Source of the DNA: a virus
Lineage: Duplodnaviria; Caudoviricetes
DNA: 29,789 bases
Direction: 5' to 3' (one strand)
IMG/VR virus record: IMGVR_UViG_3300032373_000080
Coordinates: 1 to 29,789 of that record
This document shows positions 3,344 to 29,789 of the stretch, piece by piece. Each line of letters starts with the position of its first letter. Position 1 is the first letter of the stretch. The notes below the pieces were generated by a model. It saw only the letters and a list, made by a program, of their open reading frames with translations, did no database searches and had not been told where the DNA came from. The translations under genes and the position numbers were made by a program.

Positions 3344-4060
3344 ATGAAACTACAAACGATATTTGACCAACTCGTTCATGGTGAGTTAGCTCACTTATTT
3401 ATAGGTGGCAGTGAAACCGATAACATTATCATACCCGAGAATTATCCTAAAGTTGTTACCTATATCAACATGGCACTATTGGAATTATATAAGAGATTTC
3501 CTATCCATGTAGCACAAGTTGATGTTCAACAGTATGAAAGTATAGGCACTTACGTTATGGCTTACGATTATGCCATTAGTAACGCTACATCGACCCAACC
3601 AACTAAGTACATACAGGATAGTTTAACTAATCCCTTTAAGGATTCAGCCTTTCTTAAAATAGAAAATATATTTGACGAGAACGGTTGTGAGTTAATATTA
3701 AATAACTCAGTAGAGGCAAAATCATACTTTACCCCACATTATAATCAAATTCAGGTTCCTAACCCATCAGATGATGTAATGTTTAGTGTTATGTACAGGG
3801 CTTCTCATGCCTCCTTAGCTGCATCATCGGATATAGACCCTGAAGTTGTAGAAGTCTCATTACCCTTCTCTTTATTACTTCCTTTATGTTCATTCGTAGG
3901 TGCTAGGGCTTTTGCCGGCACTAGTACACTTAATGGGGTAGATGATTCACAGCGTATGATGCAACAGTATGAATTGGCTTGCGCTAGAATTACAGAATAT
4001 GATTTACTTAATTATGATATTACACCTAACTATAAGGCGGTAAATAACGGATGGGCATAA
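3344..4060 (+). CDS. Virion adaptor/head-tail connector protein (N4 gp67-like)
   Basis: 238 aa directly after terL; N-terminal MKLQTIFDQLVHGEL, INMALLELYKRF and C-terminal NNGW as in N4-like gp67; synteny. Confidence 0.75.
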   Translation: MKLQTIFDQLVHGELAHLFIGGSETDNIIIPENYPKVVTYINMALLELYKRFPIHVAQVDVQQYESIGTYVMAYDYAISNATSTQPTKYIQDSLTNPFKDSAFLKIENIFDENGCELILNNSVEAKSYFTPHYNQIQVPNPSDDVMFSVMYRASHASLAASSDIDPEVVEVSLPFSLLLPLCSFVGARAFAGTSTLNGVDDSQRMMQQYELACARITEYDLLNYDITPNYKAVNNGWA

Positions 4061-7000
4061 AGCACTGCAAACCTAAGACCTCAACGGTCGGGGGTGTAGA
4101 GCAATATATCAATACCGCATATGACAACATTAAAAAGGTATCTGATAATTTAGAAGCTCTGCTTAATCTTAATTCTACGTTTAATAATTTACAGGGCATT
4201 TACTTGGGAGCATACGCAACTGCTCCTATAGAACGCCCGGACACTTCAGCTTTAATTAATGGAGACCATTACTTAAATACTGATGCTAATTTACTATATG
4301 TGTACATTGATGATTCTTGGATTTATCATTCTATTTTCTATACCCAGGATGCATTAAATGATGCTGTAGGGGATGGACCATTTAATGTTTGGATTGTGTA
4401 TGCCGATGATAATAATGGTACAGGCGTATCATTAACCCATCATGGTAAAAAATTCATTGGTTTTGCTGCAGGTAATGTAGGAACGGTACCGGATACTTCA
4501 GATGCCTCAATATACAGATTTGTACGTTTTTATGGGGATACCGGTGAAGCAGGCGTTAGTCCTCAATTACATATCATGTATGCAAACTCTGCTGACGGCA
4601 CTACAGACTTTAGTTCTACTACTGGCTCATACATTGGTGAACACGTTAGTACGGATACCACAGCCTCTACAGACCCTGCTGATTACAATTGGAATAAGAT
4701 TACTGGTGAGAAGGGTGATGCAGGGATTAGTGTAACCGTTGTAGACAATGGAAATGGGACGTATACATTTACTGCATCCAATGGGAGTGTAGTAGTTAGT
4801 GATGGATTAACTCCAGAGAAAGATGTTGATTACTTTGATGGTAATTCAGGTGATTATGTTTCAATGGTTTACGGTCATGTGGATGCAAGTGACCCAGCTC
4901 CTACTATAGATGCAGGTACAGGTTCTTATGATGGAACCACTGAAGTTATGCCTACTGGTTCAACTACATGGGAAAAAGACCCTGTATTTATTGCTGGTAG
5001 GACTACTTATGTCGCAACTAATCGATATATGCACGCATACACTTCAGATACGTGGTCACTTAGATATAATGATTGGAGTGTTCCTGCTCCTTTTATTCAA
5101 AATCCCGAATCTCCTCCGCAAAGTCAAGTTAAAGGATTTACATTCAAACGTTCATCAGATACTAATTTTAGTGAAGTACCTACAGGTGGTACATTTGATA
5201 ATCCAGACCCTACTACTATAGGCTGGGAAGATGGTATCCCTACAGGTACAGCCCCTATTTGGGTATCTACGGCTACTTTTACTTCAGATGGATTATCACC
5301 TCAAAATGTTGGAAATCCTGTTGTATGGGGAGAACCAAGGCTCTTATCTGAGAATGGTGAAGGAATAAGACTTAAGTTTGGACCTACTGAAACAGGACCA
5401 TGGTCACTTACTCCAAGCATTAACGATGAATACATGATTACCAGTACTAGAGATTCTTCTGGTATATGGATTGATGACACAGCTAATCCCGTAAGGATTA
5501 AAGGCGAATCAGGTGTAGCACCTCAAGCTAAGTTAAGAGCATTTGCATTTAAACGTTCTGCAGACCCAGCATTCAGTGAAACACCTACCGGTGGTACATA
5601 CACTAGTCCTAACCCTATAGATAATATTGTTACTGGTTGGTCAGATGGAATTCCAGCAGGCACAGATAGACTATATGTAAGTGTACGTACATTTACTGAT
5701 GATGGACTACCTCCTCAGAATACTTCATGGAGCCTTAGCCAAGTATTTTCATATAATGGTACTGGCTTCCGTATATTATTCAGTGTTGACGGTATTAGCG
5801 ATTGGCATGAAGAACCTACAGAGTTTGATGAATGGGCGCAACCACAGGTAAGTACTGATGGTGGCAATACTTGGATTAATTCTGGAATAGCATATAGATT
5901 CAAAGGGGAGAAAGGTGACCCAGGAGAAACAATACTACAGGTATCAATATTTCAGAGAGGGACTAGCTTACCAAGTAAACCACTAGATGGTAGTTTTAAT
6001 TTTGATACTAGAACATTAACTCCTCCAGCCGGATGGGAGTCTACTGTTCCTGATGGTATTGATAATGTATATATTTGTGCTGCTTGGATTAATAATTCAT
6101 TAGGGCAACAGTTAAATACTATTTTATGGGAAGACCCTGCATTACTTACTTCTCCGGGAGAAGCAGGAGCAGATGGGCCTAGGGGTAGTCGACATTTTTA
6201 CGGTACGTCTGCAGCAGGTGTATGGTCAGATGTAGAAGCAGATACAGTTATAGCTAACGCTGGTGAAGTTAAAACAGGTTGGGATGTCGTAACTATGTCT
6301 AATCCTGCATTTGGTTTCTCAGAAAGTAGATATTGGAATCTAGATGAAGACCCAGATGAATGGACTAAAATTACTGAAGTTATTGATGGTAACTTGGTTG
6401 TATTTGGTACTATTGGTGCTGACCAAATAGCTGCTAATGGAATTAAAGCAGGTAATATTGATGCAGATGCTATAACAGGTCGACATCTTAATATTAATAC
6501 TGATGGTACAGAATCAGGTAATATATCTGGAGTAAGTATGACTCTAGACCCTTACTCAGCTTCTCCGATGACCATTACAGACAATTCCACAGGCGATAAC
6601 GTATTTTCTATACAGTTAGTTGATGGTCAGGCACTGGCTACTGTTAATGGGGTAGCAGGTAATGAATTTATTACTAATATTTCTGCATTAACTCAAGACG
6701 TCATTTATGCACTAAATCCTTACTACTTAGGGGCCGGCTCTAGCGATTCTGCCACCGTTCCTGCTACATTAAGTTCAGCACAAAGCTCAACTATTACCTT
6801 AACCAATGAAGAAGATGTAAATGTTAATATAGACTTTAATGTGAGCACTTCAGGGGATTACTTAGGTGTTAACCAGAATTGGACAGCTCCCTCATGGAGA
6901 GTTGAAGTTAAAAGAGGAGGTTCACTAGGTACCGTACTTTATAGTAAAGTACATACCGGTAATGTATGGAATACTCCAGAAGATACTTTAGGGCTATTCT

Positions 7001-7440
7001 TTGGTGGGTATACTTTAAGTATTGCTGATGGTTTAGTGGATACTAATCCCGGCGTTAACCAGAATTATACCTTAGTAGTTACTCGCATTAGTGGTACTGC
7101 AACTCAAGTTACTTTGGACGCTTTTAATGGGAATGTACCTTCATTCACTAAAAATGAGTTAGACACTAATTCAACAGGTGGTTACTCTTGGGTAGATAAA
7201 GATACAGGCTATACACGTAAAAGTGGGACAATAAGTGTTCCTGGCAATAGCTCAGCAACTGTAGTATTTACTGATTCATTTACCACTATATACTCTGCTA
7301 ACGCTACAGCATTAACTCCTGATACTGGTTCAGATAATGGAGCTAATTTGTGGAATGTATCTAATAATGAACTCACGATTTACAATCCTGAAGGTACGGA
7401 TAGAGTATGTCATTGGCAAGCTGATGGACATACAGCTTAA
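4051..7440 (+). CDS. Tail fibre/appendage protein (N4 gp66-like N-terminus, mosaic body)
   Basis: 1129 aa; N-terminal VEQYINTAYDNIKKVSDNL attachment-type motif; short collagen-like GxxG linkers; duplicated 135 aa module; GTIGADQIAANGIKAGNIDADAIT repeat; C-terminal small beta domain ending CHWQADGH. Confidence 0.85.
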   Translation: MGIKHCKPKTSTVGGVEQYINTAYDNIKKVSDNLEALLNLNSTFNNLQGIYLGAYATAPIERPDTSALINGDHYLNTDANLLYVYIDDSWIYHSIFYTQDALNDAVGDGPFNVWIVYADDNNGTGVSLTHHGKKFIGFAAGNVGTVPDTSDASIYRFVRFYGDTGEAGVSPQLHIMYANSADGTTDFSSTTGSYIGEHVSTDTTASTDPADYNWNKITGEKGDAGISVTVVDNGNGTYTFTASNGSVVVSDGLTPEKDVDYFDGNSGDYVSMVYGHVDASDPAPTIDAGTGSYDGTTEVMPTGSTTWEKDPVFIAGRTTYVATNRYMHAYTSDTWSLRYNDWSVPAPFIQNPESPPQSQVKGFTFKRSSDTNFSEVPTGGTFDNPDPTTIGWEDGIPTGTAPIWVSTATFTSDGLSPQNVGNPVVWGEPRLLSENGEGIRLKFGPTETGPWSLTPSINDEYMITSTRDSSGIWIDDTANPVRIKGESGVAPQAKLRAFAFKRSADPAFSETPTGGTYTSPNPIDNIVTGWSDGIPAGTDRLYVSVRTFTDDGLPPQNTSWSLSQVFSYNGTGFRILFSVDGISDWHEEPTEFDEWAQPQVSTDGGNTWINSGIAYRFKGEKGDPGETILQVSIFQRGTSLPSKPLDGSFNFDTRTLTPPAGWESTVPDGIDNVYICAAWINNSLGQQLNTILWEDPALLTSPGEAGADGPRGSRHFYGTSAAGVWSDVEADTVIANAGEVKTGWDVVTMSNPAFGFSESRYWNLDEDPDEWTKITEVIDGNLVVFGTIGADQIAANGIKAGNIDADAITGRHLNINTDGTESGNISGVSMTLDPYSASPMTITDNSTGDNVFSIQLVDGQALATVNGVAGNEFITNISALTQDVIYALNPYYLGAGSSDSATVPATLSSAQSSTITLTNEEDVNVNIDFNVSTSGDYLGVNQNWTAPSWRVEVKRGGSLGTVLYSKVHTGNVWNTPEDTLGLFFGGYTLSIADGLVDTNPGVNQNYTLVVTRISGTATQVTLDAFNGNVPSFTKNELDTNSTGGYSWVDKDTGYTRKSGTISVPGNSSATVVFTDSFTTIYSANATALTPDTGSDNGANLWNVSNNELTIYNPEGTDRVCHWQADGHTA
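5116..5721 (+). repeat. Intragenic duplicated domain in the tail fibre (period 405 nt, 135 aa)
   Basis: PQSQVKGFTFKRSSDTNFSEVPTGGTF...GWEDGIPTGT...TFTSDGLSPQN (from 5116) versus PQAKLRAFAFKRSADPAFSETPTGGTY...GWSDGIPAGT...TFTDDGLPPQN (from 5521). Confidence 0.85.
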
Positions 7441-9480: not shown

Positions 9481-9933
9481 ATGGCTAAAGGTGATACCGT
9501 ACTATTTGAGGAATTTCCCTATAATCTTGCACAAGCAACAATGAATCTAAGTACAGATTCATTTGCTTTAATTTTAATTAACTCTTTACCAAGTGCTGAC
9601 CAAGCAACACCAGGTTCTGCTGATTTTACTGAAGTAGCTGCTGGCGGTAATTATTCTACGGGTGGTATTGCACTGACAACTACCTTTGTAGAAGCTGCAG
9701 GTATTGCTACTTTTGATTCATCTGTAAACCCTTCTTGGGCTTTAGGTGCAGGAGGACCGACTGATATAGTAGCTGCTTTACTTATTAATACTACTATGGC
9801 AGGCGCTCAAGGTGATGCAGTAGGCTTCGTTGATTTAACTAATGATGCTGGGGTAACTCCTGTATCTTTGGTTGATGGTCCCGTATCTGTTAATTGGCAC
9901 GCTAACGGTATCTATAGAATTTTACGGGCATAG
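9481..9933 (+). CDS. Small beta-rich virion fibre subunit (module A)
   Basis: 150 aa; DSFALIL...TEVAAGGNYSTGGIAL...PSW...GFVD...VNWHANGIY pattern typical of small phage proteins that precede fibre genes; GAGG RBS. Confidence 0.65.
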   Translation: MAKGDTVLFEEFPYNLAQATMNLSTDSFALILINSLPSADQATPGSADFTEVAAGGNYSTGGIALTTTFVEAAGIATFDSSVNPSWALGAGGPTDIVAALLINTTMAGAQGDAVGFVDLTNDAGVTPVSLVDGPVSVNWHANGIYRILRA

Positions 9934-9946
9934 ATGAGGTGACACT

Positions 9947-12900
9947 ATGCCAGTAACTATACTCAATCCCGCAGTAGGTACTGCTGATAGCAATTCAAAT
10001 CCTGTAGCCCCTTCTGCAGGAGTTGACCGCTATTGGCGTATTACCTATATATACGATTCCAGTTCTTGGGCTAGTAGACCAACACAAATCCAAGTATCTG
10101 GGGATACTAATACAACATTAGATAGGATACATAGTTTTACTGGTACAGATTTTCAAATATTAACATTTGGGTGTAAAGACGCAGACATAGGCACTAACCC
10201 TAGCATTGCTAACGGTAGTCTATCTGCTTTAGATGGTGCACTTCCTCCTAACGATAACTTAACTATTGTCATCGGTGAAGTATTTGCAGGTGTAGACCAA
10301 ACTACTCCATTTACTGATACCATTAATGATGGTTATGATGTAAGTGATAGAACCAACAACGCAGATATACCATTTACTATTGACGCATTAAATGGTGCAC
10401 TTTGTTCTGTGGTAGTAGTTGCTAATGAGACTGCATTAACATGGGCGCTTACTGCTAATGGTTATACTGCTGGTAGTGCAGCAACAACTAATACAGCCTT
10501 TGAAGCACATACAGCTACTAAGTCGCTAACCGCTGCCGCAACCGATGAACTAACTACTTTCGGTACTGGTTCAAGTACTTCTGAGAATGCTGTAGCAGCT
10601 TTCGTATTTTTACCTACGGCTATAACTACTGTTGTATCTCCAGATACTGTTGATATTAATTTTGTTGTAGAAACTCCAACTGTACAAAGCGGTCTGATTG
10701 GGGAGCATGTTTACCCTGATACTGTGGATATACAGTTAGATGCTGACAATGCAGAGGTAGTTGCCGGTCCTCCAGAATTTCCTGGACTTATCGGACAACT
10801 ATCAAACTACACGGCTTCTACCGGTGTACTTACATTCTCTGGTATTGGTAATAATGGTTCAGGTTGTGGTTATAATCATGAGACTAAAAAAGTTTATGTA
10901 GTACGTAATAATACTGCTGAAGTTTTTGAGTATAACGAAGGTGACTACGATAATTTAATTCGTATCATTACTGTTTCCACTAACTATAAAGATACCGAGG
11001 GTGTCACTTATCTTGGTGATAACCGTATTGGTGTAGCAAGTGAGAATGGTAGTTCATATCGTCAAATTATCTTTACAATACCTACAGGTACCACTAACGT
11101 TAATGTAGTCCCTGACCAAACTTTATTCTTAGCTGAATCAGAAACAGATAACAATTCTGGATTAGAAGGTAATACTATTAATCTAGCTACTGGTGTTTGT
11201 TATGGTGTAGGTGAAGGAGAGCAGGCTAGTACCCCACGTAAGTTTTTACAGTGGACCTTACCTGTTGACCAAAATACAGATTATAACCATGCTGAGCCTG
11301 AATTAGATGCGTATGAGCCTTGGGACGCTGATACTGTATTTACTGGTTCAGGTAGTACATTGGATTTATCTGGTTGTTGTTTTGACCATACTAGTGGAAA
11401 TGTAATTATATCTTCCCATCGTGGAAGAAAAGTTATGTTGGTTGACCCAGCTAATGGAAATATACTAGATGAGTTACCTGCTACAGATTTAAGTCAAATT
11501 GAGTCTGTACAGATATTATCTAACGGTACTCTATTAATTGGTGGTGAAGCCAATGAATATCAATTATTCGTTCCTAACTTGGGTGAAGGAGAAGTTTCAG
11601 CTACCTTCGCTAACATAGAGATAGTGACAGAAAACGCTACTGTATCTAGTTTCTCTACTGTTGCTCCTATAGAAGCTACATCGGCTAATATAAACTTTGT
11701 AACTTACAGGGCTACGGTTGCTACCGGACAACTACCGGTAATATCTCCTATACCTCACGCAACTATTGCATTAGGTAATACCTATTCTTATACACCAGCA
11801 CTCTCTAATGGTGAAGACCCTTTCTGGTTTAAAGAGTATGGTCCCGACTCAATGACTGTTGACCCAGAAGATGGAAGTATCTCATGGGATTCATCTGTAT
11901 TGCTTCGTGGTCAGGGCATTAAAGTAGGTATTGGCTGTTCTAACGAAAGTGGTCAAGATATCGCATGGTTTGTAATTCATGTTGATAATACTGGAACCTC
12001 TAAGTTACTTGAACTAGGTATTGATACCGTATCTCCTTATATTAGGATTGCATGTCAAGAATCTATTGTAAATGGTGGAGATACTTTAGTAGTTCCTAGT
12101 GGGCATAGGTATGCTTCTGTAACTGCTGACCAATCATTTGAAAATACTTTTGCTGATGCAAATGTTAATGAAGTGCCAGAAGGCACTAACCTTCAAATGA
12201 CTACCATAATGTCCGAAGACTTTACTATTATTGATGCTGGACCTCATGATGGTATTCCAAGACAGGATGAAGCATTAGAATTGCTTATGCAGCCTAATGC
12301 ACCATCTAATTATGTTAAATGGTCAGGATTAGAGTGGACAGGTAATAATCGCCAAGCAATCAATTGCGGAGCTACACATAACGTATTTGAATTGGTGGGT
12401 GCTACTGATTCTGGGTATAACCTAGCTCCTACAACCTTTGTCGAAGCTGATGGGGCCTATGGTTCTGTTGCTGCAGGTTATTTACATGGTGAAGGTAGTG
12501 TATGGGAAAATAGTTACTGTTTTGGTCAATTTAGGTATGGCTTACAGTTTGGCGTAAGCATGTCAAATACTGTAATGAGCAGATGTATTGCACGCCCTGA
12601 TGAATATCATGGTGACCAGCCTAGAGGTGCATTAGTGCACTACACAGTAAGCTCTGCTAATATTCTTAATAACTTTGTTATTGATGGTGACCAAGAACAT
12701 TTATCACCATTCTACAAGAATTACGCCGGCGCATTTGGGTTACCTGCTACAGGCAATGAGACTGTTCCTGAAGACCAGTTAATGAATTGTAATATGGCTA
12801 TTAATAACCAAATGGTCACACTTACTAATGATGCAAGTAGAGCATCGGATACTCCTGACTTCACAGTTAAGAATTTGGTAGCTGCTGCGGTAACAAGTAC

Positions 12901-14392
12901 CGATACTCCACAAACTGGTTCTAAGTCTCCATTTATATTTAGAACTAAACTACAAACTGATTTAGATGGTTTTACCTTCTATGACGCCTCTCCGTATCCA
13001 GGGTCTAGCTACAATAGTGCTTATCTTGTGCAGTCCGGTTCTAATAACACCTTTGAAGCAAAAAATGGTATTGCATATAGAATGGGGTGGGATGGTGCAG
13101 TTAATGTAAATAATGGTGATTTTACTTCAAGTAACCAAGTAGGAAGTACATTAGATAATATAAATATATTTGATTTTCCTGCTAATGTTGGTGGTACTTA
13201 TACTACGACATCTAACGTCACTACTGATACTAACCCGACAAATAATGGATTAGATTACTTACCCCGAACTGAGGAAGGTAGTCCGGTACATACAGCAGGA
13301 CAAGGTGCTAATATCCTTACTTTTGCTGGACCATCTAACGTACTTGGTGGTGATGTGGGCTGGAGAGATGTAACTGATGAATGGTGTTGGCCTCATCCTG
13401 CTGAAGAACATATTGCTTCACGTATGTCATCTTACAGTAAGTCAGGCTTACCAGTACGTAATGCTACCATCGGAGTCGACCCAACTGACTTTACTGGTGC
13501 TATCAATGGTGCTCGTGGATTTGCTGCATCGGGTGAAAGTTTCTCAGAGTATATTTGGGGATACTTAGGCCGTACAGTTCCCCCATTAAGAGTTGAGGTT
13601 AAACAACTAACTAATGATTCTGCTAAGTTTTATATTGGTAAGTATCGTTCAGTTAGAGGTGACTCAATAACTAAGTTTAACTTGTATCATAAAACTGATA
13701 CTAACAATCCTGTTGCTACATTTACTGGATTAAACCATACCCTTACTAATATACCTGAAGGTACTAATGAATATGTACTTAGGGCTGTAGACCCTAGTAA
13801 GGTTACTGCTTATGATGGTAATGAGGCAGGTGAATCAGGAAACAGTAGGACTTTATTAGTTACAGTCGACGCTGTACCAGTGACAAGTGTTGATGCTACT
13901 TTAGCTACGATTAATCTTACTACATATCAAGCTGCTGTAGTTTCTTCCCCGGTAGGTGGTACCGTACCTGACCCAGTTGATACCTATCCAATTTTTATGA
14001 ATTATGGAACCAAGCCAGAGATACCGGATGTTATGAATAGTCCTATATTACCTCTGGGAGATGATGTTGATTTGGTGGCTCAATTATTACGCCGATGGAG
14101 ATTTTTCTCTATTAGTACTGGTACTGATATTTATGCTACTATTATCTCACTTGATAGACGTACCCAGTATACCAATCCAATTGCCCAGTTAGATTCACAA
14201 TCGGAAGCAAATTGGGGAACGTCACTAGTTAACGTTTCGATACCGGCAAATGAAACCGCCACTATCGCAAATTTACCAATATCTTGGACCAATGGAATAG
14301 CCCCAGCATGGTTAGAAATTCAGGTGAGATTACCTCACGGAACTAAAACTTTCTACGCAGGTGTTAATTTAAGTCTAAGCACTATCGACTAA
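9947..14392 (+). CDS. Large multidomain fibre/adhesin-like virion protein (module A)
   Basis: 1481 aa; N-terminal beta-sandwich-like domain, five ~20 aa linker repeats, SdiA-regulated-like propeller (DTEGVTY, NSGLEG, DLSG), Ig-like domain, beta-helix-like region, FN3-like domain, C-terminal domain shared with 16323-19379; GAGGTG RBS. Confidence 0.75.
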   Translation: MPVTILNPAVGTADSNSNPVAPSAGVDRYWRITYIYDSSSWASRPTQIQVSGDTNTTLDRIHSFTGTDFQILTFGCKDADIGTNPSIANGSLSALDGALPPNDNLTIVIGEVFAGVDQTTPFTDTINDGYDVSDRTNNADIPFTIDALNGALCSVVVVANETALTWALTANGYTAGSAATTNTAFEAHTATKSLTAAATDELTTFGTGSSTSENAVAAFVFLPTAITTVVSPDTVDINFVVETPTVQSGLIGEHVYPDTVDIQLDADNAEVVAGPPEFPGLIGQLSNYTASTGVLTFSGIGNNGSGCGYNHETKKVYVVRNNTAEVFEYNEGDYDNLIRIITVSTNYKDTEGVTYLGDNRIGVASENGSSYRQIIFTIPTGTTNVNVVPDQTLFLAESETDNNSGLEGNTINLATGVCYGVGEGEQASTPRKFLQWTLPVDQNTDYNHAEPELDAYEPWDADTVFTGSGSTLDLSGCCFDHTSGNVIISSHRGRKVMLVDPANGNILDELPATDLSQIESVQILSNGTLLIGGEANEYQLFVPNLGEGEVSATFANIEIVTENATVSSFSTVAPIEATSANINFVTYRATVATGQLPVISPIPHATIALGNTYSYTPALSNGEDPFWFKEYGPDSMTVDPEDGSISWDSSVLLRGQGIKVGIGCSNESGQDIAWFVIHVDNTGTSKLLELGIDTVSPYIRIACQESIVNGGDTLVVPSGHRYASVTADQSFENTFADANVNEVPEGTNLQMTTIMSEDFTIIDAGPHDGIPRQDEALELLMQPNAPSNYVKWSGLEWTGNNRQAINCGATHNVFELVGATDSGYNLAPTTFVEADGAYGSVAAGYLHGEGSVWENSYCFGQFRYGLQFGVSMSNTVMSRCIARPDEYHGDQPRGALVHYTVSSANILNNFVIDGDQEHLSPFYKNYAGAFGLPATGNETVPEDQLMNCNMAINNQMVTLTNDASRASDTPDFTVKNLVAAAVTSTDTPQTGSKSPFIFRTKLQTDLDGFTFYDASPYPGSSYNSAYLVQSGSNNTFEAKNGIAYRMGWDGAVNVNNGDFTSSNQVGSTLDNINIFDFPANVGGTYTTTSNVTTDTNPTNNGLDYLPRTEEGSPVHTAGQGANILTFAGPSNVLGGDVGWRDVTDEWCWPHPAEEHIASRMSSYSKSGLPVRNATIGVDPTDFTGAINGARGFAASGESFSEYIWGYLGRTVPPLRVEVKQLTNDSAKFYIGKYRSVRGDSITKFNLYHKTDTNNPVATFTGLNHTLTNIPEGTNEYVLRAVDPSKVTAYDGNEAGESGNSRTLLVTVDAVPVTSVDATLATINLTTYQAAVVSSPVGGTVPDPVDTYPIFMNYGTKPEIPDVMNSPILPLGDDVDLVAQLLRRWRFFSISTGTDIYATIISLDRRTQYTNPIAQLDSQSEANWGTSLVNVSIPANETATIANLPISWTNGIAPAWLEIQVRLPHGTKTFYAGVNLSLSTID

Positions 14393-14406
14393 AAGGCGAA
14401 GAAAAT

Positions 14407-14583
14407 ATGAATACATCTAGAGGAAAAGTAGATTTATACGCAGTAGTTTATTGTCAACATACAGGGATGCCAAAGATTGATAACCCTCTGAGTGTACCGG
14501 ACGTTGTATGGCATGGATTGTCTCAACGAGAAAAAGACCACGTTAACAATAGCGTCTTAGAACATTTAAGGCGCTATGATTAG
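14407..14583 (+). CDS. Small hypothetical protein, 58 aa (not in ORF track): MNTSRGKVDLYAVVYCQHTGMPKIDNPLSVPDVVWHGLSQREKDHVNNSVLEHLRRYD
   Basis: ATG 14407 to TAG 14583 fills the gap between the module A long gene and the module B subunit gene; purine-rich upstream sequence. Confidence 0.65.
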   Translation: MNTSRGKVDLYAVVYCQHTGMPKIDNPLSVPDVVWHGLSQREKDHVNNSVLEHLRRYD

Positions 14584-14615
14584 AATTTTTTAAACTTAAC
14601 TAGAGGTGATAAACC

Positions 14616-14990
14616 ATGGCTGTAACACACGAAGTTGCTGTACGCAACGCAATGGCAGACGCTGCTGTAGACCTACTTGATGTAGGTGCTGGAGCAAACG
14701 GTACGCTTGAGTTTCATACCGCAGGAGATGTAGAGGTTGCAACACTTGCCTTATCAGCTACTGCTTTTGGAGCTGCTGCTGCTGGAGTAGCAACTGCTTC
14801 CGCTATTAGTGATGATACTAATGCAACTGGAGGTACAACTACTAAAGCTGTATTTAAAGACCAAGACGGTAACGCAGTTATTAATTGTTCCGTTGGTACA
14901 TCAGGAGAAGACATTAATTTATCCAGTAATGTAATATCCGCTGGAGACACTGTACGAGTTACTTCTTTAACTTACACAGCACCAGCATAA
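14616..14990 (+). CDS. Small Ala/Thr-rich beta virion fibre subunit (module B)
   Basis: 124 aa; VRNAMADA...TLEFHT...VATLALSATAFGAAAAG...VGTSGEDINLSS...GDTVRVTSLTYT pattern of small fibre-associated phage proteins; GAGGTG RBS. Confidence 0.7.
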   Translation: MAVTHEVAVRNAMADAAVDLLDVGAGANGTLEFHTAGDVEVATLALSATAFGAAAAGVATASAISDDTNATGGTTTKAVFKDQDGNAVINCSVGTSGEDINLSSNVISAGDTVRVTSLTYTAPA

Positions 14991-15007
14991 GTAATACTTA
15001 AATGTTT

Positions 15008-15040
15008 GCCCAATATTGTTATAATCTAGCAATATTGGGT
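15008..15040 (+). promoter_or_regulatory. Inverted repeat enclosing a consensus extended -10 element (promoter/operator and/or terminator hairpin)
   Basis: CCCAATATTG (15009-15018) / CAATATTGGG (15030-15039) flank TG-T-TATAAT (15017-15025). Confidence 0.6.
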
Positions 15041-15089
15041 TATTCATATATAAACAACTCATCAACTACAATTTACTAGAGGATAGAGC

Positions 15090-15434
15090 ATGTCAGACCC
15101 AATCCCCAACATTGATGACAAAGCAATGTCTGAGTTAAAGAAAGAAGCTCTACGCCCTGTAATTGTTATATCTGCATCAATTCTCATATTATCAATAACA
15201 TTCAATAACGTTGGCTTTAGACGTGTAATCGACGCTTATGCAAAATCACTTGAACATAAAATAGAAAATTCTGTTGAGTGTAAAACTGAAATTGCTAAGG
15301 TAAATACTGCCGAATTAAATACACAAATAGAAAGCCAAGTTAAATTATATTTAGATTCTTATATGAAGCCGTACAATAGTAGATTAGTAAACGTAGAAGA
15401 ATTAGCTCACAGTAAAGGGAATAAGAAACAATGA
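15090..15434 (+). CDS. Single-TM membrane protein with C-terminal helical region
   Basis: 114 aa; TM segment PVIVISASILILSITF; GAGGA RBS; ATGA overlap with the next gene. Confidence 0.75.
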   Translation: MSDPIPNIDDKAMSELKKEALRPVIVISASILILSITFNNVGFRRVIDAYAKSLEHKIENSVECKTEIAKVNTAELNTQIESQVKLYLDSYMKPYNSRLVNVEELAHSKGNKKQ

Positions 15435-16321
15435 AAAGAGTAATAATTTTACTTCTGTCGTGTTTAGTACTTAATGTACATTCAGCAGAATTAGCTGACT
15501 ATGTACCTGAAGGTCCAGCAAGCACTATAGGAAACGGTACAGACCTTAGCGGTGTTGCTTATGGCTCAACGCAAGAAGGCCTATTTGGGGAATTCACTGT
15601 AGATAACTACAATGCGACATTATCATACCCCGGTGACAAAACTTGTAACTTAGGTGGAGATTTAGAAGGCGTAACCATGGGCCAAAACCCAGGAGATGTC
15701 TATGTCTTAAATGAATCCATTAATGGTATTAGAGGGGTAACTGTAAGTTCCTCTGGATGTACTGACACTAATAAGTTTAAAGTCAATCTATCTAGTTCAA
15801 GTAGTGATGGTTTAGAGGGAATAGTGTATAAAGACAATTGGTTATATTTCATTGATGAAAGAACTTCTGTTATTTATAAAGCACCTTCAGACAGTACTGG
15901 CTATTCAGTATCTCTTACTACTTTATTTACAGTACCTAATTGCTTTTTAGGTAGTGGACTGACATTTAATGGCGATAATCTGGTAATTGCTTGTGATAAT
16001 CAGGAAGGTAATGGAGGAAATGGTACGTTATACGAATACACCTTAGATGGTGGTTACGTATCTGAATTAGATGTAGACTTCACTAATGTTGAGGGTGTTA
16101 CATTTAATGGTAGTCAATTAATTGTTACCGGTGAACCAAACGTAATACAGAGATTCTCTGCAGGTGACCCAGTTGACCCTCCACCGCCACCACCAGGACC
16201 GACTGAAGAAACCTGTACATTTTCAGGTGAAGTAGTAGTAAATATTGAAACAGGACTTTGGGATGCTCAAACGGTACCTTTTGTCTGCCCAACTTTAACT
16301 GTCAGCGGGACATTAAACTAA
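15431..16321 (+). CDS. Signal-peptide-bearing SdiA-regulated (YjiK-like) beta-propeller protein
   Basis: 296 aa; MKRVIILLLSCLVLNVHS|AE signal; blade motifs DLSGVAY, DLEGVT, DGLEGIVY, GSGLTF, NVEGVTF, GEPNVIQRF; Pro-rich linker and a small C-terminal domain with two Cys. Confidence 0.75.
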   Translation: MKRVIILLLSCLVLNVHSAELADYVPEGPASTIGNGTDLSGVAYGSTQEGLFGEFTVDNYNATLSYPGDKTCNLGGDLEGVTMGQNPGDVYVLNESINGIRGVTVSSSGCTDTNKFKVNLSSSSSDGLEGIVYKDNWLYFIDERTSVIYKAPSDSTGYSVSLTTLFTVPNCFLGSGLTFNGDNLVIACDNQEGNGGNGTLYEYTLDGGYVSELDVDFTNVEGVTFNGSQLIVTGEPNVIQRFSAGDPVDPPPPPPGPTEETCTFSGEVVVNIETGLWDAQTVPFVCPTLTVSGTLN

Positions 16322-16322
16322 T

Positions 16323-19300
16323 ATGTCAGTATCTGTTGCTCTTAGTAGTTTTTCCGGTACTAATGTAAGTACCGGTATAGACATCTCACATGCTCATGTA
16401 GGTACGCCTAAAGGCGTCTTAGTGACTATAATTGAGCGTGCTCCTACGGGTGACAGAATATCAGGTGTTACTTATGGGGGAGAAAGTTTAGTTGAAGTTA
16501 CCACTGGTGTAACTACTGCTTCCCCCATAATATATACAAACGCTGAACCATTTACGATACATTACTTTTTCTTGGGTACTAGCGTACCGGCCGGTACACA
16601 GACAGCTACTATAAGTCCTTCTTCTGCAGGCGGTAGGCTATGTGTAGTAACTACCTTCGATGGTGCAGCAGATTTAGAAATAAATGACTTAGAAAGTCTT
16701 GCAGATACCAGCGAAGCAGACCCATCTTATACTTTTGGTTTAGGTGGGACAGAATCATTAGTAATGATAGGCTTTGGTTCTGGATATTCAGCAGTAGGTA
16801 ATGTCAGCCCTTACACTGGTTGGTCGGAAGAGGCAGAATTTGATTTAGGCTCTAGTGTTGCAGGTGTTTATTCCTATGACACTGTTGGAACTAGTGACCC
16901 TACAGATTGTGGTTATAATACATCCGGTGCTGATGATGTCTCTCTATCTGCAATAGCAATTAATGAAATCTCTGGTGGAAGTACTACACATACCGGAACA
17001 GGTGGATTAAGTTCAGCAGCTTCTACTATGTCAGGTTCAGGTAGTAGTTTTACTGTTGAATCGGGTACTGGTGGTTTATCTAGTGCTGCAAGCTCATTAA
17101 CCGTAACAGCTAACGCATTCTCAATACTATCAGGTACTGGTTCATTAGTTACTAATGTCAGTACTATTGCTGGTGTAGGTGAAGTTGTACATAGTGGTTC
17201 AGGAGCACTAACAAGCAATAATGTGACATTAACTAGTACTGCTTCAGTTATAAGAACAGGTAGTGGTACGTTAAACAGTCAAGATGTTGTATTAACTGCT
17301 GTGGCTGCATTAGTTAAAAATGCTACAGGTAATTTAGCAAATGTTGATAGTTCCATTACCGCCACCGCAGAAGTTGTAAGGGCAGGTACAGGTACTCTAA
17401 ATTCTGCTGATGCTACTATTGACGGCGCAAGTGTAGGAGTAGTGAGTGCTGCCCCTACTTTAACTGTTGACCCTTCTACCATAAGTGGTTCAGGTGCTCG
17501 AGTAGTTAAGACGCCATCTAATGCCTCATTAATATCTAATGAGTCAACACTATCAGTTACCGCTACTGTAGTTAAAACAGCGCTGGGTACACTAAATAGC
17601 ACGCAAGCTACATTATCAGGTAGTGGCGCCACATTTGCTCTAGGGGCAGGCACAGGCTCTTTAACTAGTCCTAATGGCTCTAGTATTACTGCCACTGTCG
17701 ATATAATACGTAAATCATCGAATGATACTTTAGCTTCTAGTTCTAGTTCACTTACTGTAACAAGTAACATAATTAGAGTATCTAATTCAGATAACATTGG
17801 AGCGGATAGCTCTACTATTAATGGTTCTGGTTTAGGTATTGTTACCGGTGTTGGTACTTTAACTGTAAATTCTGCAGAAATAGATGCTGTAATAGTTAAA
17901 GAAGTTTCTGGTACTGGTGCACTTAATTCAAGTGATTCTGCTGTATTCGGTGCTGGTGGTGACATTGTAATTATTATTGGTGATTTAGTAGCTGACTCTG
18001 CAGTACTTAATAATACTGGAGTTGTATTTACCACTATAGATATAACTGAAGCTATCCAAGCAGATAGTGCTAATATCGTCGGTGTAGGTACTGTAAGCGT
18101 ATTATCACAAGGTACAGGTAACCTTGCAGCAGGTGATTCTGACATATCAGGTGCAGGTATTAACTCTAATGCTATTTTAGTTACTGGCAACCTACAAAGC
18201 GAAGTATCTACGTTATCTGGCGTAGGTAGTGGTTTTACAGTTAATGTAAGTACCAGTGATAATTTACAAAGCACCTCTTCAAGCCTTACTGTTGATGTAG
18301 AAGCTTTCACTATAATCGATACAGTTACTGCAGATTTGCAAGTAAGCAGCTCTACAATGAGTACTGCCGGGGAACGAGTAATTACTGGTTATGGTGATTT
18401 AGTACATCAACTCAGTAATATGTCAGCCACAGTAGAATTATTTAAAGGAGTCTCTGGTAATCTTAGACCTAATCCTAGTGGTATTAGTGGTACCGGACTT
18501 AAAGGTAAAACATATACATCTCTGCGGGTAACAGCAAATAGCTCATCCTTATCAGGACAAGGCATTGCATTTAGTACCTTAACAGGTACCGGTAACCTAA
18601 TTAGTGGCTCACCCCTTATATCTCTGGAAGTAAGTACAGAAGGTGATATTACCCCTGTAGACTTTACGTTTGGCTCACTAACTACTAATTTATTAGATAC
18701 TATAACTGAAGCCTCAGAAACCATTACAATTACGGGATTGAACCTTCAAGTGCCTATTTCAATAGATGGAGGAGAGTACAGTATAGATGGTGGTGCATTT
18801 ACTACTCAGCCAGGTGTAATTAGTAATAACCAAACATTACAGGTAAGATTATTATCTGGTAATGCCATGGGAGTTGTATCCACAACTACTATTACGGTAT
18901 CTGACTATGTAACTACATTTGTTGTAACTACTTCTCCGGGAATTGAAACTAGTGAAGGTCAACCTTTATGTCTTACATCTAATTATGGAACATACCCTAG
19001 AATTGTAGGAAAAATAAACAATATAGAGTTTCACACTGAAGATGCATTAGAAGTATTAGTACAATTAACTAGACGTTGGAAGAGTTTTGAGATTAATCCA
19101 ACTGCTGAGGTTAGTTGTCGATTAGTATCTACTGACCGTCAAAATACGTATACAGATATTAGCTTACAGACATCTACACAGAATGGTGCAGATTGGGCTA
19201 ACTCATTGATTAACTTAATAATACCTCGTGAACAGATGCAAGCATTAAAGGATGAATTATTACCTTGGAATATATGTACATTGCCTTGTTTCATTGAGAT

Positions 19301-19379
19301 AGAAATTAGAGATACTCATGGTACTAAGACGTTCTATACTAGAGTACTACTAATTAAACACTTAATACTGGAAGAGTAG
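16323..19379 (+). CDS. Long repeat-rich fibre protein (module B)
   Basis: 1018 aa; N-terminal ~220 aa globular domain, about 25 tandem 21-24 aa Ser/Thr/Gly repeats, Ig-like domain (DITPVDFTF...GGEYSIDGG), C-terminal domain shared with 9947-14392. Confidence 0.8.
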   Translation: MSVSVALSSFSGTNVSTGIDISHAHVGTPKGVLVTIIERAPTGDRISGVTYGGESLVEVTTGVTTASPIIYTNAEPFTIHYFFLGTSVPAGTQTATISPSSAGGRLCVVTTFDGAADLEINDLESLADTSEADPSYTFGLGGTESLVMIGFGSGYSAVGNVSPYTGWSEEAEFDLGSSVAGVYSYDTVGTSDPTDCGYNTSGADDVSLSAIAINEISGGSTTHTGTGGLSSAASTMSGSGSSFTVESGTGGLSSAASSLTVTANAFSILSGTGSLVTNVSTIAGVGEVVHSGSGALTSNNVTLTSTASVIRTGSGTLNSQDVVLTAVAALVKNATGNLANVDSSITATAEVVRAGTGTLNSADATIDGASVGVVSAAPTLTVDPSTISGSGARVVKTPSNASLISNESTLSVTATVVKTALGTLNSTQATLSGSGATFALGAGTGSLTSPNGSSITATVDIIRKSSNDTLASSSSSLTVTSNIIRVSNSDNIGADSSTINGSGLGIVTGVGTLTVNSAEIDAVIVKEVSGTGALNSSDSAVFGAGGDIVIIIGDLVADSAVLNNTGVVFTTIDITEAIQADSANIVGVGTVSVLSQGTGNLAAGDSDISGAGINSNAILVTGNLQSEVSTLSGVGSGFTVNVSTSDNLQSTSSSLTVDVEAFTIIDTVTADLQVSSSTMSTAGERVITGYGDLVHQLSNMSATVELFKGVSGNLRPNPSGISGTGLKGKTYTSLRVTANSSSLSGQGIAFSTLTGTGNLISGSPLISLEVSTEGDITPVDFTFGSLTTNLLDTITEASETITITGLNLQVPISIDGGEYSIDGGAFTTQPGVISNNQTLQVRLLSGNAMGVVSTTTITVSDYVTTFVVTTSPGIETSEGQPLCLTSNYGTYPRIVGKINNIEFHTEDALEVLVQLTRRWKSFEINPTAEVSCRLVSTDRQNTYTDISLQTSTQNGADWANSLINLIIPREQMQALKDELLPWNICTLPCFIEIEIRDTHGTKTFYTRVLLIKHLILEE
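16986..18638 (+). repeat. Degenerate tandem protein repeat, about 25 units of 21-24 aa
   Basis: Consensus approx. [VI]xxG[TS]GxLx[SA]xx[SA]x[LI][ST]GxG; e.g. HTGTGGLSSAASTMSGSG, RAGTGTLNSADATIDGAS, VSGTGALNSSDSAVFGAG; counted by eye. Confidence 0.85.
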
Positions 19380-23101: not shown

Positions 23102-24538
23102 ATGACACAGTTATATAACGACCCGGCTGGTGGAACAGAGTCCAGTATCGGTAATCAATTTGAGACTTTCAAATGGGAGCGTAAAGCACTCATTGAAGCT
23201 CGTAAAGAGATGTATTTCTCTCAACTGTCTTCTACCAAAAATATGCCTAAGCATATGGGTAAGACTATTAAAAAGTATCATTACATTCCATTATTGGATG
23301 ATGCTAATATTAATGACCAAGGTATAGATGCCGCTGGTGTTACTACTACTCGTAGTAAAACTATCGTTATCCGTAAACCAGGTACATTAAAAAATATCTA
23401 CACTGATTTCTACGCTGTAGGTGAAGGTGCTAATGATGGGGCTGCTGTAACTGCTGCTGAAGCACGAGCTATGGAACTATTCGCTAGTCCTGCTGTTGCT
23501 GGTTTAGATACATCAGATGTGGCTAATGATACCTATGCTGAAGCTAAAGCTGTACTTGAAGGCTTAGGTTGGGTTATCGATGATACTGCTGCTGCTGTAC
23601 CGGTAGCCGGTAATCTTTATGGTTCATCTAAAGATATCGGAACTATTGTTAGTAAGTTACCTACTCTTTCTGAGACAGGTGGACGAGTTAACCGAGTTGG
23701 CTTCAAGCGTGTTGAAATTGAAGGTACTATTGCTAAATTTGGTTTCTTCCAAGAGTACACTAAAGAATCCATGGACTTTGATACTGATGCGGAACGTATG
23801 CAACATATCAACCGTGAGATGCTTAACGGTGCTGTAGAAATTACTGAAGATGCAATCCAGATTGACATGTTAAATGGTGCTGGTGTTGTACGTTACGGTG
23901 GTGCTGCTGCTAGTGCTGCAGAAATTTCTGGTGAATCAGGTGAAGTATCTAGTCCTACTAACGCAGGGTTAACACGTTTAGCTATCGATTTAGATAATAA
24001 CCGTACCCCTAAAAGTACTAATTTAATTACTGGTACTCGTTTAGTAGATACTAAAACTCTTCCAGCAGCTCGTTTCATGTACATCGGTTCTGAGCTAATC
24101 CCTACTGTAGAAAAAATGGTTGATGACTTCGGTGATAAACTATTTAAATCAGTTGAGACATATGCCGCAGGTACTACTGTTGCTAATGGTGAAATTGGTT
24201 CTGTAGGTAAGTTCCGAGTAATCGTTGCTCCTGAGATGGTTCATTGGGCTGGCGCCGGTAAAAGTGTAACTACTAATACTGGTTATAGAGAAACTGGCGG
24301 TAACTACGATGTCTTCCCAATGTTAGTTATTGGTTCAGAGGCATTCACTACTATAGGTTTCCAATCTGACGGTAAGTCTAAGAAATTTACTATATATGAC
24401 AAGAAGCCTGGTCTTGAAACTGCTGACCGTACTGACCCGTATGGCGAAATGGGATTCAGCTCTATTAAGTGGTACTACGGTTCACTTATCGAGCGTCCTG
24501 AACGTATCGCTGTATACAAAGTTGTTGCTGAGTGGTAA
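23102..24538 (+). CDS. Major capsid protein (N4 gp56-like) with an internal insertion
   Basis: 478 aa; MPKHMGKTIK, YIPLLDD.NINDQGIDA, GNLYGSSKDIG, GGRVNRVGF, DPYGEMGFSSIKWYYG, RPERIA. Confidence 0.97.
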   Translation: MTQLYNDPAGGTESSIGNQFETFKWERKALIEARKEMYFSQLSSTKNMPKHMGKTIKKYHYIPLLDDANINDQGIDAAGVTTTRSKTIVIRKPGTLKNIYTDFYAVGEGANDGAAVTAAEARAMELFASPAVAGLDTSDVANDTYAEAKAVLEGLGWVIDDTAAAVPVAGNLYGSSKDIGTIVSKLPTLSETGGRVNRVGFKRVEIEGTIAKFGFFQEYTKESMDFDTDAERMQHINREMLNGAVEITEDAIQIDMLNGAGVVRYGGAAASAAEISGESGEVSSPTNAGLTRLAIDLDNNRTPKSTNLITGTRLVDTKTLPAARFMYIGSELIPTVEKMVDDFGDKLFKSVETYAAGTTVANGEIGSVGKFRVIVAPEMVHWAGAGKSVTTNTGYRETGGNYDVFPMLVIGSEAFTTIGFQSDGKSKKFTIYDKKPGLETADRTDPYGEMGFSSIKWYYGSLIERPERIAVYKVVAEW

Positions 24539-28854: not shown

Positions 28855-29789
28855 ATGCCTATTACATGGAGAAACGTTAATGCACCTAATTTTGGTGCAT
28901 CTAATCGATTACTGCAATCAGGCCAAGAAGCAATACAGAGAAGCTTTCAAGGCTTAGCTAACCTATCAGGTGATATTACTGAAGATAATAGGAATCAAGC
29001 CACTGAAGAGGCTTTAAGTCGTATTGCTAGTGTTGGTTCATTAGAAGACTTCGAGACCGCTAGAGATACTGGATTATTCGATACTTCCAGTTTAGGTAAA
29101 TCAGTAGACCAAGCTAAGATACGTAAAGCACTTAAAACTCGAGGTACTGAATTAGGACAACAACAGACGTTAGCTAATCAACGTGAGAGAGAACAGGTTA
29201 ATCACTTGGCTTTCCAACGTGAACAGGAGCAGCGTCCTATTAGGCAAAATTCTATGAATCTAGTAGCTGAAGGTAAGTTCCAAGAGGCTATAGCGGCTGC
29301 TGAAGGACTTAGTGATAAAACTGGTGTTCTAGATGCAATTAAACGTGCTCAACGAGCTAATACTAAGGCTGAGCGTGAGAAGATTGCATTTAATGAGGAA
29401 CAGGCTCAACGCTTAGCTGCTCCTGAATTAGCAGAACAAGAATTGGCTATTGGACGTCAATTAACTACTATCGATGATAATTATTCACAAGTTGTAAATG
29501 ATTATCCTGTTACTCGTAATGTTACTACAGAAGAGGAAGCCATCAAACAAGGAGATGTGATTGAAAGCATTAAATCTAATTTTAGTAACGCTAAAGAGAA
29601 CTTAGATTTAAATCAAGATGAAATTGATGAAATTGATGCAGGACTTAAACGCATTACAAGTAAAACATTCAAACGACCTTTACCAGTAAAAGAAGGAGAA
29701 AAAGCTCGCAGTGAAACGTTGAAGTATCCAGGATGGGTATTAGAGCAAGCATTTAAAACTGTAGGTTTTGAGGGTGGCATATTCAGGAA
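28855..29789 (+). CDS. N4 gp51-like virion (ejection-type) protein, 3'-truncated by the window end (not in ORF track)
   Basis: ATG 28855; MPITWRNVNAPNFGASNRLLQSGQEAIQRSF...; helical Glu/Gln/Ala-rich frame with no stop seen before the window end; synteny after the gp52-like gene. Confidence 0.75.
   Translation, partial: MPITWRNVNAPNFGASNRLLQSGQEAIQRSFQGLANLSGDITEDNRNQATEEALSRIASVGSLEDFETARDTGLFDTSSLGKSVDQAKIRKALKTRGTELGQQQTLANQREREQVNHLAFQREQEQRPIRQNSMNLVAEGKFQEAIAAAEGLSDKTGVLDAIKRAQRANTKAEREKIAFNEEQAQRLAAPELAEQELAIGRQLTTIDDNYSQVVNDYPVTRNVTTEEEAIKQGDVIESIKSNFSNAKENLDLNQDEIDEIDAGLKRITSKTFKRPLPVKEGEKARSETLKYPGWVLEQAFKTVGFEGGIFR

Follow-up and report, generated by a model that had tools for sequence, protein, structure and literature searches.

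In several tailed phages, small bead proteins are strung on an extended rope polypeptide, as described in recent structural reports. In phage Bas63, the Ig-like collar protein is extended N-terminally into a rope around which whisker dimers wrap, two per rope, and which completes their beta-sandwiches (PMC12609058). Fiber I of phage GP4 consists of five gp80 dimers on a separate rope protein (PMC12609058), and phage A1002 mounts 11 dimers of two proteins (gp40, gp41) on one rope via beta-sheet augmentation (PMC13730344). The garland of phage Milano was likened to beads on a string; the string itself was without identification in that account, whose authors propose a string protein (PMC10811340). 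Here we describe a 10-kb cassette in virus record IMGVR_UViG_3300032373_000080 (Duplodnaviria, Caudoviricetes), which was analysed over its whole length of 29,789 bases (the window) and is a fragment about 40% complete. The cassette probably encodes two virion fibres of the chain-like (rope-and-bead) type known from GP4, Bas63 and A1002, on which the beads would be mounted as dimers; the models suggest that each rope is likely paired with its own bead.

We observed two sets of bead and rope genes, repeats in both ropes, a C-terminal domain shared by them and a linkage between repeat type and bead family. An initial annotation of this DNA had proposed a template chain decorated by small subunits as an under-described filament system. 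This idea falls into a solved class, because the Bas63, GP4 and A1002 structures show ropes with dimers, and the design has been solved in Sf14 as well (PMC12609058, PMC13730344). New are the N4-like host of the system, two separate ropes that each probably have a cognate bead, a rope that bears cargo domains, a linked gene for a protein of 58 amino acids (aa), and the 25 sites on rope B, compared with at most 11 in solved fibres.

Putative bead and rope proteins

The four open reading frames (ORFs) of 150, 1481, 124 and 1018 aa are real and lie where the initial annotation had placed them (Table 1). Bead B matched phrog_3758 (virion structural protein; expect value, E, 1e-13), and its profile matched PDB chain 9rkv_A (E 5.4e-5), which was also recovered with its predicted model by Foldseek (E 5.9e-5; template modelling score, TM, 0.77). 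Other beads resembling this model were those of Bas63 (9mt4, TM up to 0.59), Sf14 (0.57) and 8jou_a (0.50). Judging from chain length, 9rkv chain A is probably the garland protein of phage 7-7-1. The predicted models of both beads match the beads of chain-like fibres (7-7-1 garland, Bas63/Sf14 whiskers, GP4 gp80), so that each module has a small bead with a putative gp80/whisker fold. Beads A and B lack similarity in both sequence and profile comparison (hhalign probabilities of 0.2% and 0.4%), as had been noted before, but their models share one fold, and the alleged dissimilarity thus holds at the sequence and profile level and fails at the level of fold. The Atlas score for Gp80 (0.88) is a lead only. 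Pfam Gp80 (PF23140) was matched at E 1 by none of 32 bead A members and did not occur among the 25 of 27 matched families listed for 120 bead B members, in a Pfam copy that may lack this model.

The repeats of rope B span aa 223 to approximately 775. Autocorrelation at lags 21 and 23 exceeded the best lag of all 200 shuffles, and a profile from the 25 repeats, whose list was fixed by register, recovered 24 of them and had no match in rope A, in agreement with the earlier count of about 25. Identity between rope B and its orthologue P0154 is 93% for the N-terminal domain, 35% for the repeats and 43% for the anchor. P0154 keeps approximately 25 repeats despite this divergence, which in this one pair of sequences is suggestive of selection on length. 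The conserved N-terminal domain (16323-16982) beside such diverged repeats reflects either strong selection or a recent exchange of the tip.

The repeats of rope A are split 2+2+1, with about 1000 aa of other domains among them, including an SdiA-regulated propeller. Its tandem pairs at lag 25 were matched by 1 of 500 (aa 549/574) and 2 of 500 shuffles (aa 230/255). In leave-one-out analysis, copies 3, 4 and 5 ranked first, their scores being equalled by 2, 3 and 0 of 200 shuffles; copies 1 and 2 were not recovered (199 and 200 of 200 shuffles reach their score). As only copies 3-5 are supported in this way, copies 1-2 are regarded as a variant of the motif, and rope A thus has three firm and two variant short extended docking segments next to the 25 of rope B. 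The five repeats claimed for rope A therefore stand as two tandem pairs beyond chance and a fifth copy at aa 1314, not as the single block following the N-terminal domain that had been described. The Ig-like, beta-rich and FN3-like labels in rope A were assigned by eye, and the approximately 700 aa that they cover had no Pfam match at E 1. The rope-A-type propeller recurs in ropes of two other loci, L086 and L088 (E 5e-41 and 4e-45).

The C-termini of the ropes are homologous (rope A aa 1235-1475, rope B aa 771-1010; 29%, E 3e-24), which upholds the common C-terminal domain noted initially. The 22 anchor representatives are mostly stand-alone proteins of 109-152 aa, with a few longer fusions, and in L086 the gene order is bead A, a rope with the rope-A-type propeller, and a stand-alone anchor right after the rope. 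The anchor is a candidate LtfC/BppU-like beta-sandwich; the Atlas clusters LtfC (0.94) and BppU_N (0.93) provide a lead only, with recognition below the Atlas bar.

Table 1. Features of the cassette, with positions in the window.
Feature	Position	Strand	Remarks
Bead A, 150 aa	9481..9933	+	Predicted dimer; fold of GP4 gp80 / Sf14 whisker type
Rope A, 1481 aa	9947..14392	+	Order: N-terminal domain, repeats 1-2, propeller, repeats 3-4, Ig-like, large beta-rich region, FN3-like, repeat 5, anchor
A repeats 1-2 (aa 228-274), variant subtype	10628..10768	+	Tandem pair
SdiA-regulated / YjiK-like propeller in rope A	10778..11581	+	PF06977 E 2.3e-15, aa 285-500; 3qqz YjiK E 8e-4
A repeats 3-4 (aa 549-595)	11591..11731	+	Tandem pair; leave-one-out rank 1
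A repeat 5 (aa 1314-1335)	13886..13951	+	Leave-one-out rank 1; repeat chosen for complex prediction
Anchor domain A, putative LtfC/BppU-like beta-sandwich	13997..14392	+	34% to anchor B, E 4e-16
58-aa ORF, overlooked initially	14407..14583	+	Family directly upstream of B-type bead genes
Bead B, 124 aa	14616..14990	+	Relative of phage 7-7-1 garland protein
14-bp hairpin, terminator-like	15008..15040	+	Directly after bead B stop; z -4.98, 0/200 shuffles
114-aa ORF, one hydrophobic segment	15090..15434	+	Hydropathy peak aa 20-38; weak phrog_17690, E 0.005
296-aa ORF	15431..16321	+	Signal-peptide-like N-terminus (hydrophobic aa 4-14) and SdiA-regulated propeller, PF06977 E 3.9e-5
Rope B, 1018 aa	16323..19379	+	N-terminal domain, 25 tandem repeats, Ig-like domain (by eye), anchor; orthologue P0154
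25 B repeats, period 21-24 aa	16989..18659	+	Autocorrelation and profile
Anchor domain B	18975..19379	+	22 representatives at E 0.001 or better

Predicted complex of a rope A repeat with bead dimers

Complex formation was predicted as a competition between two copies each of bead A and bead B for one A repeat (aa 1310-1342), with a peptide alignment of 23 rows chosen with a motif drawn from the window repeats. The repeat was placed across the bead A dimer only (score 0.78, best control 0.17), and the score dropped to 0.01 when bead A was replaced and bead B was left. Confident contacts involved both bead A copies only and peptide residues 1-29; runs agreed in at least 88% of contacts, and the partner predicted local distance difference test (pLDDT) was at least 70. 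The score mark is reached by 116 of 157 solved pairs and 2 of 215 mismatched pairs, counts that are only roughly valid for this job. In the model, the groove is filled by the rope peptide, i.e. in silico a rope segment of module A runs across a bead dimer by beta-augmentation. The prediction supports one bead dimer per A repeat with a preference for the cognate bead; bead folds, dimer binding by the A repeat and preference for bead A over bead B are all predictions. Modelling of a repeat with cognate and non-cognate subunits, proposed as a check by the initial annotation, hence gave the expected result in one direction. The notion that each small protein is bound, through beta-strand addition, by the repeats of the chain next to it is supported by the fold matches, this one complex with its controls and the covariation described below, the prediction itself applying to the A repeat.

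Two details of that notion had to be revised. The model gives a dimer per repeat instead of one subunit, so bead:rope ratios would be about 10:1 and 50:1 and not 5:1 and 25:1. The comparison with donor-strand complementation of pili was also inexact. In pili, a strand of another chain completes the beta-sandwich, and each subunit donates to the next, giving a length without a template. The rope of the window, in contrast, is a separate chain predicted to donate to all dimers and to complete their sandwiches.

Covariation of repeat type and bead family

Eighty viral loci were fetched per bead, i.e. the best 80 of 431 and the best 80 of 107 confirmed. The window B profile had three or more matches in 27 of the 80 B loci and in none of the 80 A loci or the shuffles, and the window A and B profiles had no cross-match at threshold 12. 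De novo repeat finding was followed by a composition filter, written after the labelled list was seen, that kept 103 loci and dropped 39 rows; it lost some true B ropes and retained a few non-rope repeats. Once the loci had been dereplicated at 70% bead identity, 46 of 54 had a nearest repeat belonging to their own bead family (28/28 B, 18/26 A; null mean 26.6, maximum 42). All 58 kept B units scored nearer to the window B repeats. The A units were mixed: 23 of 45 were nearer to B, and a clear A preference was seen in just three of the six closest A loci. Repeat type thus tracks bead family, clearly for B and weakly for A, and the co-occurrence of subunit and repeat types suggested initially was borne out to this extent.

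Bead B lies beside a B-type chain in Vibrio phage K354, where at least 15 repeats were counted, and in Sphingopyxis phage VSN-002, and bead A near an A-like chain in a Manatee Spring phage. The B-type rope gene of VSN-002 (L002, 5956-7422, 488 aa) is absent from the listed annotation of that record. Both beads occur in 2 of 160 loci, L065 (8001-11127) and L075 (7132-8127); in L065 a repeat ORF (9819-10433) adjoins the A-type bead gene. Two beads of one family are encoded in each of L044, L045, L097, L104, L105, L108 and L149, and one of the two in L108 is fused to a 784-aa protein. A distant A-bead subfamily (L112, L117-L119, L130-L132, L141, L146, L150 and others) has its own 20-aa glycine-rich acidic repeat in up to 18 copies, likely a third bead/repeat type.

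Genome setting and additional genes

PHROG and Pfam matches delineate an N4-like virion block of terminase, gp67-like protein, a 1129-aa fibre, lysis-type genes, the 10-kb cassette, portal, scaffold-like gene and capsid, and agree with the position between lysis-type genes and an N4-type portal assigned initially. The portal shares 54.7% identity with its counterpart in Escherichia phage Pollock (Schitoviridae), with which the window has the order terminase, gp67-like, fibre, lysis, portal and capsid in common. N4-type portal, capsid and gene order place the virus in the Schitoviridae (N4-like); an ordinary N4-type long fibre gene is present at 4051-7440, and the record stops at 29,789, short of the site where relatives encode the giant virion RNA polymerase. 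The cassette is extra to the N4 layout, as had been proposed, because the lysis genes of Pollock directly adjoin its portal and none of 42 N4-like portal loci encodes either bead or the shared anchor in the DNA examined (29 reach more than 3 kb and 14 more than 8 kb upstream). The major capsid protein (23102-24538) has 478 aa, compared with about 395 aa in Pollock (by coordinates) and 356 positions in the PHROG profile, possibly owing to an insertion or extra domain.

Module B is not the two-gene unit described initially, as the 58-aa ORF precedes its bead gene and the ORFs of 114 and 296 aa lie between bead and rope. The 58-aa family comprises 17 jackhmmer matches (single-pass phmmer gave 4); every one lies in a B-bead locus, with its end no more than about 185 bases from the bead ORF; several of these 17 fragments are from near-duplicate loci, leaving about a dozen independent ones. 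No member was found in the A-bead or N4-like portal loci examined, and the ORF had no Pfam match and no convincing PHROG match. The hairpin after bead B would suit a bead:rope ratio of 50:1; it is no general trait of the bead B family loci. The 296-aa protein, whose propeller belongs to the same Pfam family as that of rope A, has no relatives in the loci examined. Its N-terminus suggests that it is likely exported and no part of the virion; a role in receptor masking is a guess.

Proposed fibres and alternative explanations

Each rope repeat would run across one dimer of its own bead. Rope B could carry 25 B dimers as a long tether of up to about 180 nm (estimated from 550 aa at 3.3 Å per residue), with the conserved N-terminal domain at its tip, and rope A five A dimers that may stiffen the linkers between the propeller and other folded domains. 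Both ropes would dock via the homologous C-terminal domain on a collar-like site, and the fibres may help the virion to make initial, reversible contact with the surface of the host or its polysaccharide, in addition to the usual long fibre of N4 type. Fold matches, predicted complex and covariation support the proposal of the initial annotation that the long chain sets the count, that each repeat type has a cognate subunit and that the dock is shared, with the unit corrected to a dimer.

Several observations weigh against this interpretation. It derives from the genes and models of a fragment of 29.8 kb, about 40% complete. Bead A had no Foldseek match at E 0.001, the anchor matched none of the solved sequences, and just one of 21 anchor members touched Pfam LtfC (E 0.03). 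The neck collar of the N4-like phage DEV is formed by the N-termini of the long fibre (PMC11445570), and since the collar there is the long fibre itself, the collar-like docking site proposed for the anchors is tentative. None of the 80 A loci or the 80 B loci had two or more matches to the window A profile. With a profile from L086 and L088, two true A repeats came out on top within rope A, but their scores did not exceed the 95th percentile of those from shuffles, and a site in rope B scored higher than they did. Bead identity and repeat likeness are only weakly correlated inside each family (Mantel rho 0.24, p 0.005; 0.15, p 0.026), and linked neighbour genes can co-vary by descent even without binding. 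The complex prediction covers module A, one repeat and one direction, the job is unlike the calibration set, and its pass may partly be memory of solved look-alike complexes.

It is unlikely that pairing is not strict, so that either bead loads onto either rope or both are mixed along one rope as in A1002, where two beads of 16% similarity sit on one rope (PMC13730344). Beads A and B share a fold, the nearest repeat is B-type in 8 of 26 dereplicated A loci, and the in-silico competition covers the one repeat and direction stated above; yet the score collapsed once bead A had been replaced and bead B left in place, three or more B repeats occur in B loci and in none of the 80 A loci, and the two window profiles do not cross-match. 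It is very improbable that the beads polymerise by themselves, with the long proteins forming separate fibres and their repeats folding unaided into a beta-solenoid. No string was identified for the Milano garland (PMC10811340) or the VP1 fibre (PMC13730344), the neck fibres of A-1(L) are chains of trimeric beads, and among loci with 3 kb of flanking DNA in either direction our filter found no repeat ORF in 7 of the 47 with bead B and 10 of the 33 with bead A. The Milano authors themselves propose a string protein (PMC10811340), however, and the predicted complex, the distribution of the B profile and the dereplicated covariation all argue for a rope, as do the repeats of rope A, which are single or paired and too few for a solenoid. 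Least probable of all, and hardly credible, is that the cassette is recently acquired cargo outside the virion, either vestigial or acting at the infected cell surface with the exported 296-aa protein. Its absence from the 42 N4-like portal loci, within the upstream DNA given above, and the apparent export of that protein would fit, but all ORFs are intact, the PHROG of bead B is labelled virion structural, ropes and beads lack a signal-peptide-like start (by eye), and the diverged orthologue P0154 retains the rope length.

Within the favoured interpretation of two rope-and-bead fibres, a more elaborate scheme is tentative and, on balance, doubtful: two orthogonal channels on one N4-like virion. 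A repeat code would send each bead to its own rope; rope B would be a length-conserved tether of 25 dimers, more than twice the longest solved; rope A would be a display scaffold whose dimers space the propeller and other host-binding or glycan-acting domains; both would share one dock, and the 58-aa protein would be an undescribed B-specific cap or loader.

Because the basic design is already published, the value of this locus lies in the pairing rule. According to the accessible texts, A1002 sorts two beads along one rope without explanation (PMC13730344), and Milano and VP1 are without an identified rope. Two bead families and two repeat types in one genome, together with the family-wide B signature, offer a direct test of whether the choice of bead depends on repeat sequence and fibre length on repeat number. 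The B signature is also a way to spot ropes beside thousands of unannotated bead genes, and if the pairs are orthogonal, they would be simple programmable protein rulers. The fibre type is extended to N4-like phages, for which no earlier report was found in the literature searched; nor was the arrangement of two separate ropes in an N4-like phage, with subscription papers and supplements outside the scope of that search.

Comparison with known chain-like fibres

In both sequence and fold, bead B is related to 9rkv_A, the probable garland protein of Agrobacterium phage 7-7-1 (gp014; PDB 9RKV; PMC12796354). The 7-7-1 and Milano (gp125/gp127) garlands differ from the cassette in that they ring a myophage baseplate and their string is without identification (PMC12796354, PMC10811340). 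The whiskers of Felixounavirus Bas63 and of Sf14 (PDB 9MT4, 9C39; PMC12609058) resemble bead B in fold (TM 0.57-0.59), and their dimers are likewise strung on a rope that completes the sandwiches, there N-terminal to a fused Ig-like collar. Both, however, belong to myophages with two dimers per rope and one bead type, whereas the window has two ropes, with 5 and 25 sites respectively, as well as two bead types and extra domains. Fiber I of Ralstonia podophage GP4 (PDB 8JOU; PMC13730344, PMC12609058) has a rope that is its own protein and locks into the collar; in the window the anchor is fused to the rope, and the sites of rope A are scattered among folded domains. Pseudomonas podophage A1002 is alike in having two different beads per phage, beta-sheet augmentation and ordered loading, and its description as accessible discusses no repeat-sequence code (PMC13730344). 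Its single rope, gp39, has 11 sites and is fused to a nozzle part, whereas the window encodes two ropes, each with its own repeat type, and a C-terminal anchor shared by both.

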